Source of the DNA: an uncultured Gemmatimonadota bacterium
Lineage (GTDB): Bacteria; GCA-2686955
Reading direction: 5' to 3'
Assembly: GCA_964490075.1 (NCBI GenBank)
Contig: CAZBBK010000022.1
Coordinates: 6,168 to 70,167 of the forward strand
DNA: 64,000 nucleotides
In this document: in pieces, positions 20,590 through 24,284 of the stretch
Numbering within the stretch: position 1 is the stretch's first letter
Layout of the letters: every line of letters begins with the position of its first letter
Made by a program: the position numbers and the translations under genes
The notes under the pieces: generated by a model
Database searches by the model: none
What the model was told of the DNA's origin: nothing
What the model saw: the letters and a program-made list of their open reading frames with translations, nothing else

Positions 20590-22095
20590 CTACCGCACCC
20601 GAACCCGCCGCACCTTGCGGCCCAGACCCAGGATCTTGATTCGGCGGCGCAGGGTCGACTCCGGGATTCCGAGCTGCTGGGCGGCGGCGGTGCGCACGCC
20701 GCCGGAGGCGCGCAAGGCGTCGCTGATCAACTGTCCCTCGTGCAGGCGCATCAGATCGGAGAGCCGGCGGCTGGGGCGTCTGATTCCACCCACCGACGCA
20801 AAGCGCTGCCGCCACTCGCGCAGCTCGCTCTGGACCTGTCGCGGCCAGATCAACCGGCCCCGGGCGCGCGCCGAGATTCGTCTCAAGAATAGCTCCAGCT
20901 CCGCCACGTTGCCCGGCCAGTAGTAGTCCTTGAGCAAGGCGATGCAGCCCGCCGCCAGCTCGCGCGGAGCGGGGAGCCCGAGCCGCGCCTCGGCCCGGAC
21001 CAGCATCGCCGCCGTCAGCTCGGGGAGATCCTCGAATCGATCCCGCAGCGGCGGCAGGCGGATCTCCAGAGCGCAGAGCTCGTCGAGCAGGCGCGCCCGG
21101 AAGCGCCCCGCCAGCACCTCGGAGTGCAGATCGCGGCGGGTGGTGGAGACCAGTCGCGCCCGGAGCGCGCGTGGCTCTCCCTCGCCCACCGGATCGACCC
21201 GGCCGGCGCGGATCGCCCGCAGCAGCATCTCCTGCAGGGCCTCGCTCAAGAGGGCGACCTCGATCAGCAGCAGCGTGCCTTGGCCCGCCTCCAGCAGCAA
21301 GCCCTCGCGGGCCGCGCCGTAGCCGCCGCCACCGACCGGGCGCTCCCCGAAGAGCTCGCGCTCGACCATTCCGGCCGAGCAGGCCGCCACGTCGACCGGC
21401 AGCAGCGATCCCACCCCGCGCACCCGGTGCAGCGCTCTGGCGGCCAGCTTCTTGCCGCTGCCAGCCTCGCCGAGCAGCAGCACCGGCTGGGGCATCGGTC
21501 CGTAGAGAGCGATCCGCTCCCGCACATGTTGAATCACCGCGCTCCGCCCCGCCAATCCTCCGATCGCCGCCCGCTCGGGCGACAGGCGGATTCGCGCCAT
21601 AGAGCGCTGGTGCGACTGCATCGCGTCGACATAGATCGACAGCGCCCGGCGGATCTCGTCCACCCGGCCGCGGGCCCGGACGCCCTCCAGCGAATCGCTT
21701 CGCGAGTCCAGGTAGACGCAGCCGACGCAGCCGCCGGAGCCGTCGAGGGGCACGCAGATCACGCTTTTCAGCGCCCCCTGCGCGACCTCGGGCAGATCCT
21801 CCAGGTCGTGGGCGTGCAGGGCGCGACGCTGGCGCAGCATGCGCTCGGCGACCCGGTGCGCGAGCTCGCCGCGCGGTCCACGCTCGGCAAAGCTGGTGAT
21901 CGGCTCGCTGCCCCCGATCGCGAGCAGCAGGGCGCCGTCGATGCGCAGCCCGTGCGCCAGCGCCAGGTAGCGCACGGCGGCGTCGAGCATCGGGCCCAGG
22001 AACTCCTCGAGGCTGTGCTCGCGCGCGACCGCATCGAGCAGGATCGCATCGAAGGCCTCACGCAGCGCGGAAACCGATTTCTGTTCTCCACGCAT
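20590..22095 (-). CDS. GAF-AAA+-Fis protein; degenerate sigma54 enhancer-binding paralogue
   Basis: Walker A GEAGSGKK; GAFTGA replaced by GGGGYGA; Walker B LLLIEV lacks the Asp; FRARL; C-terminal [19 protein letters not shown]. Confidence 0.85.
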   Translation of the reverse strand: MRGEQKSVSALREAFDAILLDAVAREHSLEEFLGPMLDAAVRYLALAHGLRIDGALLLAIGGSEPITSFAERGPRGELAHRVAERMLRQRRALHAHDLEDLPEVAQGALKSVICVPLDGSGGCVGCVYLDSRSDSLEGVRARGRVDEIRRALSIYVDAMQSHQRSMARIRLSPERAAIGGLAGRSAVIQHVRERIALYGPMPQPVLLLGEAGSGKKLAARALHRVRGVGSLLPVDVAACSAGMVERELFGERPVGGGGYGAAREGLLLEAGQGTLLLIEVALLSEALQEMLLRAIRAGRVDPVGEGEPRALRARLVSTTRRDLHSEVLAGRFRARLLDELCALEIRLPPLRDRFEDLPELTAAMLVRAEARLGLPAPRELAAGCIALLKDYYWPGNVAELELFLRRISARARGRLIWPRQVQSELREWRQRFASVGGIRRPSRRLSDLMRLHEGQLISDALRASGGVRTAAAQQLGIPESTLRRRIKILGLGRKVRRVRVR

Positions 22096-22122
22096 GATGT
22101 GCGCCCCGCGGGGGCGATGCTC

Positions 22123-22479
22123 TCAGAGCACCCAGTTGATGAGGCGGATGATCCGCTTCAATGTGAACGGCTTCTCAATGAACTGGATCGGTGCGGGCGT
22201 CGCGCCGTCCCCGTTCGGCCGGCTCCAGGATTTGCCCGACATCAGGATGACGGGAACCGGATCGGCGCTCTTGCGCACCGCGCTGAGCAGCTCGATGCCG
22301 CTCATGACCGGCATCTCCACATCGGAGATCACCAGGTCGAAATGGTCGTTTTGCAGCATGGCGAGCGCTTCGCGCCCGTCCGCGGCCTGCTCCGGCTCGT
22401 GGCCCAGATCGAGCAAGGCCTCCTGGAGCAGGGAGCGGATCTGCGGCTGATCGTCGACGATCAAGATGTGCTTGGTCAC
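22123..22479 (-). CDS. Single-domain response regulator (CheY-like)
   Basis: ILIVDD, VISDVEMPVMSG, VILMSG, FIEKPF; GGAGG RBS and GTG start at 22479. Confidence 0.9.
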   Translation of the reverse strand: MTKHILIVDDQPQIRSLLQEALLDLGHEPEQAADGREALAMLQNDHFDLVISDVEMPVMSGIELLSAVRKSADPVPVILMSGKSWSRPNGDGATPAPIQFIEKPFTLKRIIRLINWVL

Positions 22480-22523
22480 GGCGGCACTCTCCTCCAAAGG
22501 GATACGGACCCGAGGCCGGAGCT

Positions 22524-22539
22524 TGCATGCCACGTGCCA
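22524..22539 (-). promoter_or_regulatory. Sigma54 -24/-12 promoter
   Basis: Minus strand reads TGGCACGTGGCATGCA (GG-N10-GC), about 45 bp upstream of the GTG at 22479. Confidence 0.7.
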
Positions 22540-22751
22540 GCTCCGCGGCGTCCATCCCAAAGGTCGCAACCAACCTCAGTACAAGGACTTAGAGAGATCG
22601 GCCCGGAGTGCTTCCGGGGCGGCGCGGCGGCGCCCTCGCAGCCGGCGGCGGCGGGAGGTCGAGCGCGGCGGGAGGGTGGCGTTGCCAGTCAAGCGCTTGC
22701 CGCGCTTTCGCCGCTGCCTGCGAGCGCGCCACAATCGACGCGGCGCGGCGC

Positions 22752-24284
22752 CTACGCGCGGGCGGGCTCTCCGTTGCGGCGCAGACCCAAGAGCGACATC
22801 TTGCGGCGCAGGGTGCTCTCGGGAATCCCCAGCGAGCGGGCGGCCACGGTCTGTACGCCGCCTGCGTCGCGCAGCGCTTCGCGGATCAGCTCACGCTCGA
22901 AGCGCTCCAGCTCTTGGTTCAGCCCACCGCCCCGCGGCAGCAGCGGCAGGCCGCCCCCGCCGGGGCGGGCGGCGCGCCACTCGCGCAGCTCTTCGCGCAA
23001 CTGGTCCGTGCGAATCACCCGCTGCCGGGTGTTGGCCGAGATCCGCTCCAGGAATCCCTTCAGCTCGCGGATGTTGCCCGGCCAGTCGTGGGTCGTCAGG
23101 ATCTCCATCCCCCCCTCGGTGAGGGCGCAGGGACCGCTGAGCCCGAGCCGGGCGGCGGCCTGCTCCAGCAGCTCATCGACGATATCGGCGAGGTCGTCGA
23201 TGCGTTCGCGGAGCGGCGGCAGATGGACCTCGAGGGCGCGGATCCGCTCGAATAGATCGGCGCGGAAGCGACCGGTCAGAACGTCCGCCCCCAGCTCCCG
23301 GTTGGTCGCCAACACCAACCTGGCCGAGATCGGCATGGCGGCGTCCGAGCCGACCGGCTTGACCGTCCGCTCCTGAATCACGCGCAGCAACTTGGCCTGC
23401 AGGTCGAAGGAGAGGTCGCCGATCTCGTCCAGCAGCAAGGTCCCCTCGCCGGCGGAGATGAAGAGCCCGTTGCGATCGTGGGTCGCTCCGGTGAAGGCCC
23501 CCTTCTTGTGGCCGAAGAGCTCGCTCTCCAGCATGCTGGGCGGGATCGAGGTCACCTCGACCGGCAGAAAGCGGCCGATGCCCCGCTCGCGGTGCAGCGC
23601 CCGCGCCGCCAGCTCCTTGCCGGTGCCCGACTCGCCCAGAATCAGCACGGTGAGATCGAGCGGTCCGTAGATCGCGATCCGCTCCAGCACCCGCCGCACC
23701 GCGTCGCTGCGTCCGGCCAGACCGTGGCGCGCCGGACCCTGCGAGGCCAGGCTGGCGCGCCACAGGCTGCGGCGATGGGTCTGGATGGTGTCGAGGTAGG
23801 GCGTCAGAGTCACCCTCAGCTCCTCGACGATGCGCTCCGCCTGGTCGCCGGAGAGCGAGGCGCTGCGCGACTCCAGGTAGAGCACGCCGACCGGACCGCT
23901 GCGACCCTCGAGCGGCGCCGAGACGAAGCTGCGCGCGCCGAACTGCACCAGGCTCTCGATCTCGCCCAGATCGGCATCACCGCGCAGGTCGTGGGCGATC
24001 AAGAGGCGCCCTTCTTTCAGCGTACGTTCCACGATGGTGCGCGAGACCTGCTTGGCACCTTCCGGCATGCCCACGCTGGCCAGCACGAAACGCTCGTCGC
24101 GTTCGACTCCCAAGAGCGCGGCGACATCGACCGGCAGCGTGCCGTCCTCCTCCAACCAGTCCACGGTGGTCTTGAGCACCCGGTTGAGCAGTCGCTCCAG
24201 GTCGTCCTTGTCCGACACCGCGTCGAGCAGGATTCGGTCGAGGGACTTCCGAAGATCGCAGGCGAGCAGTTTCACGTCTGGCAT
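22752..24284 (-). CDS. GAF-domain sigma54 enhancer-binding protein (intact motifs)
   Basis: [55 protein letters not shown], Fis HTH. Confidence 0.93.

Follow-up and report, generated by a model that had tools for sequence, protein, structure and literature searches.

Why would a bacterium keep, beside an intact activator of sigma54-dependent transcription, a paralogue of that activator which has lost the residues needed to act? The question is raised by a stretch of 64,000 nucleotides from an uncultured Gemmatimonadota bacterium (assembly GCA_964490075.1, contig CAZBBK010000022.1, positions 6,168 to 70,167), called here the window; its DNA, 69% G+C, was recovered from a marine metagenome. A signalling cluster on the minus strand ends there with the genes of an intact bacterial enhancer-binding protein (bEBP), which we call bEBP1, of a lone receiver domain, and of the degenerate paralogue, which we call pEBP:

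22752..24284, minus strand: bEBP1, 510 amino acids, intact GAF-AAA+-HTH_8 sigma54 activator
22123..22479, minus strand: receiver gene (Response_reg, E=7e-24), 118 amino acids, GTG start at 22479
20590..22095, minus strand: pEBP, degenerate paralogue, 501 amino acids

An earlier note on this DNA had suggested that the paralogue is a pseudo-activator, which competes for the enhancer of the intact protein or poisons mixed hexamers and so exerts negative feedback. Comparison with a second lineage indicates that pEBP is a conserved, selectively maintained pseudo-activator rather than a decaying gene, and that it is wired into a putative regulon in the way such a circuit requires. Quite possibly, it provides a signal-gated brake on that regulon.

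Motifs and fold of the degenerate paralogue

Both proteins match the Pfam families Sigma54_activat, AAA_lid_14 and HTH_8, and they align over their full length with 45% identity (E=1e-120): the order given in the earlier note, a lone receiver followed by a paralogue of the same architecture, is borne out. The match of pEBP to PF00158 scores 104.6 bits for a cut-off of 20.2, and its C-terminal Fis-type helix-turn-helix (HTH) is kept (HTH_8, E=4.6e-10).

Residues were numbered after PspF, with pEBP aligned to the structures of PspF, ZraR and NifA (2c9c among them) and to its own relatives. In bEBPs, as in other AAA+ rings, hydrolysis depends on the Walker B Asp/Glu; the Arg finger works on the ATP of the neighbouring subunit, sensor II reads the γ-phosphate and the GAFTGA loop contacts region I of sigma54. 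All of these are present in the intact bEBP1: GAFTGA, Walker B (as LLLDEI), the Arg finger, the Asn of sensor I and the Arg of sensor II. In pEBP, the GAFTGA of the sigma54-contacting L1 loop is replaced by VGGGGY (also given as FGERPVGGGGYGA in the alignment) and Walker B reads LLLIEV, with D107->I. These two losses had already been noticed; to them we add sensor I (N149->R), the Arg finger (R168->E) and sensor II (R227->A). The P-loop (Walker A, GxxGxGK) is intact as GEAGSGKK, and the lid is retained. Altogether, pEBP fails the functional definition of a bEBP on four of seven features.

bEBP1 itself is without the Asn of the ‘glutamate switch’ at N64. An atypical status of bEBP1 on this ground was rejected, as about 40% of the fetched GAFTGA-bearing homologues lack the same residue.

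The Pfam GAF family is barely recognized in bEBP1 (23.2 bits, cut-off 22.4) and finds no match in pEBP. Still, an AlphaFold model of pEBP residues 1-175, with a predicted local distance difference test score (pLDDT) of 79.6, retrieves nothing but GAF domains among its top 50 PDB matches, including those of NifA and Nlh1. As modelled, the N-terminal domain is a GAF fold, in line with the earlier claim that it had been kept. The model of the AAA+ domain (pLDDT 84.7) superposes on NtrC1 and FleQ with template modelling (TM) scores of 0.85-0.89, which indicates that this fold is retained too.

The recognition helix PESTLRR is common to bEBP1 and pEBP, which substantiates the near-identity of their HTH motifs, and ESTLR is confined to this family among 387 fetched bEBP-like proteins. 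The closest relative of pEBP is the neighbouring bEBP1; NtrX and VpsR appear as generic AAA+ matches, ranked below ZraR and PspF. By its sequence, then, pEBP is not related by descent to the known atypical enhancer-binding proteins (EBPs).

Conservation and selection in other lineages

A search of 5.8 billion proteins and of 1.8 billion cluster representatives found the bEBP1 type in three lineages only. The second, GCA_026991065.1 (L047/L048), encodes in L047 a bEBP1 orthologue, P0122, 63% identical to that of the window and with GAFTGA present; directly downstream of it lies a pEBP orthologue, P0002, 44% identical to pEBP. P0002 carries D107->I, E108->D, N149->S, R162->A, R168->Q and R227->S, GAFTGA is replaced by SLAFDR, Walker B reads VALIDL, and Walker A is kept as GEIGTGKS. 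It is thus degenerate at the same positions as the window pEBP, with Ile at 107 in both, and the two share two deletions that are absent from both bEBP1 proteins. These common features place the duplication and the loss of function, as far as sequences can tell, before the split of the two marine lineages. The recognition helix, PESTLRRRI, is the same in both pEBPs.

Synonymous sites are saturated between the lineages (proportion of differing synonymous sites, pS, ~0.6; synonymous divergence, dS, ~1.2). For this reason the ratios of nonsynonymous to synonymous divergence (dN/dS, Nei-Gojobori), ~0.26 for bEBP1 and ~0.46 for pEBP, are taken as upper bounds. The proportion of differing nonsynonymous sites (pN) in pEBP lies below pS. 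In a neutral simulation (2000 runs per setting) with a per-site change probability of at least 0.3, the pEBP frame stayed open in <0.2% of trials.

In the AAA+ domain, the rate of evolution of pEBP is ~2.8 times that of bEBP1 (dN 0.54 vs 0.19), whereas the GAF domains differ little (0.59 vs 0.45). The relaxation is confined to the stretch of L1, Walker B and L2, where identity is 15-40% between the pEBPs and 55-95% between the bEBP1 proteins; the sensor core, the P-loop region, the lid and the HTH of pEBP are conserved. The GAF core PLDGxGGCVGxxYLDS is even better conserved in the pEBPs (70%) than in the bEBP1 proteins (40%). This pattern suggests that signal sensing, folding and DNA binding persist in pEBP, and that its work as a motor has ceased. 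Within the GAF core (residues ~113-131, window 21700-21760) there is a Cys found in pEBP only, where bEBP1 has Pro; it hints at a distinct ligand or a redox input.

In the third lineage (L130/L131), intact bEBP1-type genes are found (P0242 and P0388, the former with the motif GSFTGA), with no pEBP within 10 kb of the bEBP1-type gene. Directly upstream of that gene lies a Ser/Thr protein kinase (STK) gene, coding for 1100 amino acids with FG-GAP repeats (L130 2-3349, L131 6655-9972). The window has an STK at the same place:

24294..25688, minus strand: STK, Pkinase match E=2e-46

As its stop lies only 9 nt ahead of the bEBP1 start, the two genes are probably co-transcribed, at the end of a long signalling operon in the order histidine kinase, two response regulators (the second of LuxR type), STK and bEBP1. 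The pairing of STK and bEBP1, kept in two of the three lineages, suggests that phosphorylation controls the activator.

One further assembly, L049, comes independently from another sample and shows an identical gene order. With 4 single-nucleotide polymorphisms in 4.6 kb it represents the same population as the window, and is therefore of no use for dN/dS; its contig has an N gap and a chimeric end. Scans of a genome collection with pEBP and bEBP1 returned generic bEBPs only, at 25-47% identity, and the genomes of the window and of L047 were not among the matches.

Predicted promoter of the receiver and paralogue genes

The spacer between bEBP1 and the receiver gene, 272 nt long, holds the sigma54 motif of the earlier note:

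22524..22539, minus strand: TGGCACGTGGCATGCA, near-consensus sigma54-type -24/-12 promoter

It is the sole match to TGGCAC-N5-WTGCW in 64 kb, for 0.04 expected, and agrees with the consensus at 11 of 12 positions. With a rough weight matrix, whose frequencies follow the published consensus, it scores 16.7 bits and the next best site of the window 12.0. Its spacing and its standing in the window thus hold up. The predicted transcription start, ~22513, is 34 nt ahead of the GTG of the receiver, which is preceded by a GGAGGAG Shine-Dalgarno sequence; from the -12 C to the GTG there are 45 nt. The receiver stop lies 27 nt upstream of pEBP.

The core of TGGCACGTGGCATGCA is enclosed exactly by an 11-nt inverted repeat, CGGAGCTGGCA-N7-TGCAAGCTCCG (22517-22545). 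No sigma70-like promoter was predicted in 20000-26600, a weak negative from an uninformative scan.

In the receiver, the acidic pocket is DD, the Asp that accepts the phosphoryl group stands in LVISDVEMP, and the Ser and Lys conserved in receivers are present. No trace of it exists at the orthologous L047 locus; it is therefore a lineage-specific addition and no core part of the circuit.

Putative enhancer-promoter units and the genes behind them

Where would such an activator bind? The hexamer TGCGAC is enriched in intergenic regions of L047, with 7 forward copies in 966 nt for ~0.3 expected (an estimate from the window-wide density). When the intergenic regions of both lineages were searched for common elements, this lead resolved into a palindrome, sTCGC-N8-GCGAs. 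In both lineages the best copy lies immediately downstream of pEBP; in the window it is followed by a sigma54-type promoter:

20477..20494, minus strand: enhancer palindrome GTCGCCGATTGTTGCGAC, immediately downstream of pEBP
20376..20391, minus strand: sigma54-type promoter CGGCACAATCCCTGCT, 96 nt from GTCGCCGATTGTTGCGAC

L047 has the palindrome GTCGCTGATTGTTGCGAC (5383-5400) correspondingly placed behind its pEBP orthologue; it is identical to GTCGCCGATTGTTGCGAC at 17 of 18 positions, with flanks that cannot be aligned. In an ungapped alignment, the GG-N10-GC element CGGTACGATCTGTGCA of L047 stands in register with CGGCACAATCCCTGCT, 96 nt past the palindrome, with no conservation over the 86 nt that separate the two elements. 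A global DNA alignment downstream of pEBP shows no conserved unit: it becomes visible only in the ungapped alignment anchored on the palindrome.

We then scanned for units composed of the palindrome (at most 4 mismatches), 94-98 nt and a sigma54-like site. The window contains four (at 20.4, 44.3, 47.6 and 48.0 kb), for 0.1 per shuffled window. L047 contains two, each spaced by exactly 96 nt, and one more, likewise at 96 nt, lies on L236, another contig of the sample that gave L047. This makes seven units over two lineages, all with 96-98 nt between palindrome and GG-N10-GC promoter. The remaining units of the window are:

44320..44439, plus strand: enhancer GTCGTTGTTTGCTGCGAT and promoter CGGCACGAAGCCTGCT, spacing 97 nt, upstream of X-a (44683-45768)
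47590..47710, plus strand: enhancer TTCGCTCCTTGCTGCGAC and promoter CGGCACGCAGGCTGCG, spacing 98 nt, upstream of a truncated 5' duplicate of X-b
48027..48146, plus strand: enhancer CTCGCTATTTGTTGCGAT and promoter CGGCACGATGCCTGCG, spacing 97 nt, upstream of X-b (48235-49260)

One of the L047 units, CTCGCAGATCGCTGCGAC followed at 96 nt by TGGCGTGCTTCTTGCG, is located in the spacer that follows the bEBP1 orthologue and precedes that of pEBP. It has zero mismatches to the enhancer pattern and occupies the position of the strong promoter of the window. The window promoter, for its part, is preceded by two weak copies of the palindrome:

22635..22652, minus strand: degenerate copy GCCGCCGCCGGCTGCGAG, 4 mismatches, 106 nt from the promoter GG, i.e. 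96 nt plus about one helical turn
22707..22724, minus strand: degenerate copy CTCGCAGGCAGCGGCGAA, 4-5 mismatches, 178 nt from the promoter GG

Behind the other units stand genes of one family, gene X, whose secreted products have roughly 340-360 amino acids and a conserved C-terminal motif GDxDC(I/V)(I/V)PGAV(I/V)(I/V)T. The family has no relatives in Pfam or the PDB, and a search of 5.8 billion proteins gave four members only, all of them with an S8 subtilase gene alongside. Its copies in the two lineages are:

44683-45768, 48235-49260 and ~52338-53459, plus strand: copies of the window
~5722-6776 of L047 and 558-1598 of L236: copies of the second lineage

Every copy stands behind a palindrome-plus-sigma54 unit, save the one at 52 kb; in L047 it is the equivalent of the 20376 promoter that precedes gene X. 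Most copies adjoin an S8 protease (subtilase), with intact copies of both genes at 44-49 kb of the window. A metagenome scan for GTCGCNGATTGTTGCGAC gave 102 matches, about the number estimated to arise by chance in a collection of that size; among the 80 loci read, none had a promoter at the right distance or a protein of the family.

bEBP1 and pEBP are the only bEBP-type genes in these loci, and the ESTLR helix is unique to their family among the 387 proteins fetched. On the simplest reading, then, both proteins bind the palindrome, with bEBP1 as the activator of the regulon and pEBP as one of its members. Synteny and the shared HTH make bEBP1 the most likely activator of these promoters. Since the pEBP promoter of L047 is coupled at 96 nt to the palindrome of the target genes, pEBP appears to be part of the regulon, the wiring that a feedback circuit needs. 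The analysis thereby defines a small putative sigma54 regulon of secreted proteins beside subtilases in an uncultured marine lineage.

Several rearrangements are seen at these units. The window unit at 20376-20494 (minus strand) is orphaned: no credible gene follows, and 310 nt are left before the stop of a convergent protease gene, into whose disrupted 3' end transcription from the unit would run antisense. This S8 subtilase gene (18532-20058, plus strand) is split into two open reading frames by an insertion resembling a miniature inverted-repeat transposable element (MITE), at ~19270-19530, ~260 nt long and with terminal inverted repeats; a second copy at 42963-43133 is 90-92% identical and internally shortened. 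The protease orthologue of L047 is unbroken. At 47590-48244, a tandem duplication with a period of ~437 nt repeats the unit and the first ~30 codons of X-b; the upstream duplicate starts near 47796 (MRKAIAPLAPAATTLL...) and appears truncated.

Proposed mechanism and alternatives

In the mechanism that we propose, bEBP1 would bind sTCGC-N8-GCGAs and fire the GG-N10-GC promoters 96-98 nt downstream, which precede the secreted-protein genes near S8 proteases and the pEBP gene. pEBP would be expressed directly from such a unit in the second lineage, and through the receiver-pEBP operon in the window. It is predicted to be incapable of ATP hydrolysis (Walker B Asp lost) and of γ-phosphate sensing (sensor II lost), to make no contact with sigma54 (GAFTGA lost) and to offer no Arg finger to its neighbour. 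Bound to the palindrome as a dimer, pEBP would keep bEBP1 off the enhancer. Because the Arg finger acts in trans, and pEBP lacks both it and the Walker B Asp, a pEBP subunit within a mixed bEBP1 ring would disable its own ATP site and the adjacent one. Either route, or both, would lower activation; since the promoter of pEBP is built like those of the regulon, the outcome would be negative feedback, presumably gated by whatever the conserved GAF domain of pEBP senses.

This signal-gated negative feedback on the bEBP1 regulon is the reading towards which we lean, short of conviction. Of the earlier proposal, the conserved pseudo-activator, its shared recognition helix and its place in the regulon have gained support; the activator role of bEBP1, the binding of the palindrome and the negative direction of the effect we infer. 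With more reserve, we suggest that pEBP is a catalytically dead, sigma54-blind pseudo-activator which evolved from its neighbour to poison its hexamer or its enhancer, and so makes the sigma54 response self-limiting.

pEBP could instead be an obligatory or modulatory partner, similar to FleT, HrpR/HrpS or VnfA3, whose mixed assemblies with bEBP1 are active or switch promoter choice in a positive feed-forward; this we consider unlikely. The characterised interacting bEBP paralogues are indeed all co-activators, such as VnfA1 and VnfA3 on the same promoters (PMC9542535), fleT has a sigma54 promoter that is driven by FleQ, with which FleT then co-operates (PMC7277832), and pEBP has kept its P-loop, its AAA+ fold and a conserved sensor. 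However, the motif losses oppose any catalytic contribution: a pEBP subunit (R168->E/Q, D107->I) would silence two ATP sites, its Arg finger being needed in trans, and a ring with alternating bEBP1 and pEBP would have zero active sites. The known bEBP partner pairs, for comparison, are not known to have lost their catalytic motifs. Slightly less probable again is that pEBP is an atypical EBP of the TyrR, VpsR, NtrX or HupR kind, a sigma54-independent repressor or sigma70 activator with targets of its own, whose link to bEBP1 is historical. EBPs without GAFTGA, often without the Walker B residues as well, do act with sigma70 or repress (PMC6158489), and GAFTGA-less proteins make up ~3% of the fetched bEBP-like set. 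Against this stand the recognition helix, identical to that of bEBP1 and specific to the family, the tight conserved synteny with bEBP1, and the sole recurring palindrome, which lies at a fixed 96-98 nt from sigma54-type promoters and not near sigma70 ones.

A more doubtful explanation concerns the motif at 22524-22539, which might be no working promoter: it would be a chance occurrence or an operator, and the receiver and pEBP genes would be transcribed by read-through from the bEBP1 operon. The inverted repeat around its core, the want of a well-spaced enhancer in the window and the fact that no terminator was predicted after bEBP1, in a scan that was uninformative, all fit. Yet the motif is unique in the window, scores far above background and is correctly placed before a Shine-Dalgarno sequence and start codon, and the orthologous spacer of L047 has a GG-N10-GC element with a zero-mismatch enhancer at 96 nt. 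Finally, that pEBP is a neutrally decaying pseudogene is hardly credible. Its many lost catalytic residues and its fast AAA+ domain would agree with decay, but its frames are full-length in two lineages despite saturated synonymous divergence, a span over which simulated neutral change nearly always gives stops, and pN is below pS. Moreover, conservation persists in the sensor core, around the P-loop and in the lid and HTH, the degeneration is common to both pEBPs and therefore ancestral, and a recent transfer of the L047 gene from the window lineage is excluded by the 44% identity. The comparison with L047 orthologues, a check that the earlier note had called for, effectively refutes neutral decay.

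Several points weigh against negative feedback all the same. pEBP is found in only two lineages, which gives small comparative power. In the window, the promoter of the receiver and pEBP genes has no well-spaced palindrome, only the copies with 4-5 mismatches at 106 and 178 nt, and the inverted repeat at 22517-22545 could be an operator for another factor; repeats of such quality are estimated not to be rare by chance there, and this one may be a coincidence. The 64-kb window has no rpoN, and the RNA (metatranscriptome) runs of the same study contain 0% of the sequence words of the locus. Lastly, no characterised pair of paralogous bEBPs is antagonistic: they act as co-activators in every case (PMC9542535).

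If negative feedback is confirmed, pEBP would be the first case described among bacterial enhancer-binding proteins of a paralogue dedicated to a dominant-negative role. What holds sigma54 activators in check is usually a sensor domain of their own or an unrelated partner protein (PspA, NifL, HrpV, FleN). pEBP would represent a different route of control, with feedback of the pseudoenzyme type acting within a AAA+ machine of bacterial transcription. The set of parts is compact, two proteins, an 18-nt palindrome and a fixed 96-nt spacing, and it lends itself to the question of how many live subunits a bEBP ring needs under natural conditions.

Genomic context

The other members of the signalling cluster lie upstream of the STK:

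30013-32331, minus strand: PAS histidine kinase
27002-29818, minus strand: GAF-PAS-HisKA_3 kinase
26503-27021 and 25692-26495, minus strand: two response regulators, one of LuxR type

The region downstream of pEBP shares short repeats, similar to repetitive extragenic palindromic (REP) elements, with two other intergenic regions (20159-20311, 36101-36232 and 45797-45877; 27-84 nt, 76-96% identical). Rfam gave no match in 19900-22800.

Comparison with known systems

Regulons of bEBPs that include a paralogue of the activator are already known, as are hetero-oligomeric pairs and stand-alone atypical EBPs. In Cereibacter (Rhodobacter) sphaeroides, FleQ and sigma54 drive an operon encoding FleT, a paralogous activator-like protein that associates with FleQ and works with it as an activator of later genes (PMC7277832). 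The likeness to bEBP1 and pEBP lies in the sigma54-driven operon that encodes a second, paralogous activator-like protein. FleT is not known to have a DNA-binding domain, whereas pEBP has kept its HTH and lost the ATPase and sigma54-contact residues.

The regulon of VnfA1, a GAF-type bEBP of Azotobacter vinelandii, includes its paralogues VnfA2 and VnfA3, whose recognition helices are similar and which share sigma54 promoters as binding sites and assemble into hetero-oligomers (PMC9542535). The authors mention that regulation through hetero-oligomers might be negative, and report VnfA3 as a co-activator, with an accessory protein, VnfZ, involved (PMC9542535). Both cases thus have a regulon that includes a paralogue with a similar recognition helix. 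GAFTGA, Walker motifs and ATPase are each mentioned 0 times in that paper (PMC9542535), which therefore reports no catalytic degeneration. HrpR and HrpS of Pseudomonas syringae, in the form in which they are cited there, are encoded by adjacent paralogous bEBP genes and assemble into hetero-hexamers (PMC9542535). The pairs HrpRS, FleQ/T, VnfA1/3 and RedR1/2 are matched by bEBP1 and pEBP in adjacency and DNA-reading helix, with synteny in two lineages. Both HrpR and HrpS are needed for activation, and their negative control is left to a separate protein, HrpV.

The atypical EBPs TyrR, PhhR, HupR, HsfA, NtrX and VpsR are NtrC-family proteins without GAFTGA, several of them with a non-consensus Walker B (PMC6158489). 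They are stand-alone, acting with sigma70 or as repressors; pEBP, in contrast, is an independent duplication of a neighbouring intact bEBP, lies behind a sigma54-type promoter and has the DNA-reading helix of its sibling. Dominant-negative variants of PspF and NtrC have been engineered by mutating Walker B, R168 (R168A), R227 (R227A) or GAFTGA. pEBP carries natural equivalents of these substitutions, fixed, multiple and conserved where the engineered proteins are single mutants, and PDB entries 2bjv (R168A) and 2c9c (wpgniAel at the sensor II position) are among its matches.

In the literature, we found no report of a conserved, multiply inactivated full-length bEBP paralogue that combines the DNA-reading head of its sibling with a place beside this sibling and behind the regulon's own enhancer-promoter unit. 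What appears new here, on purely comparative grounds and in two uncultured lineages, is this combination of a dead adjacent paralogue, a shared DNA-reading head and the regulon's own enhancer-promoter unit: an architecture that is clean and directly testable.

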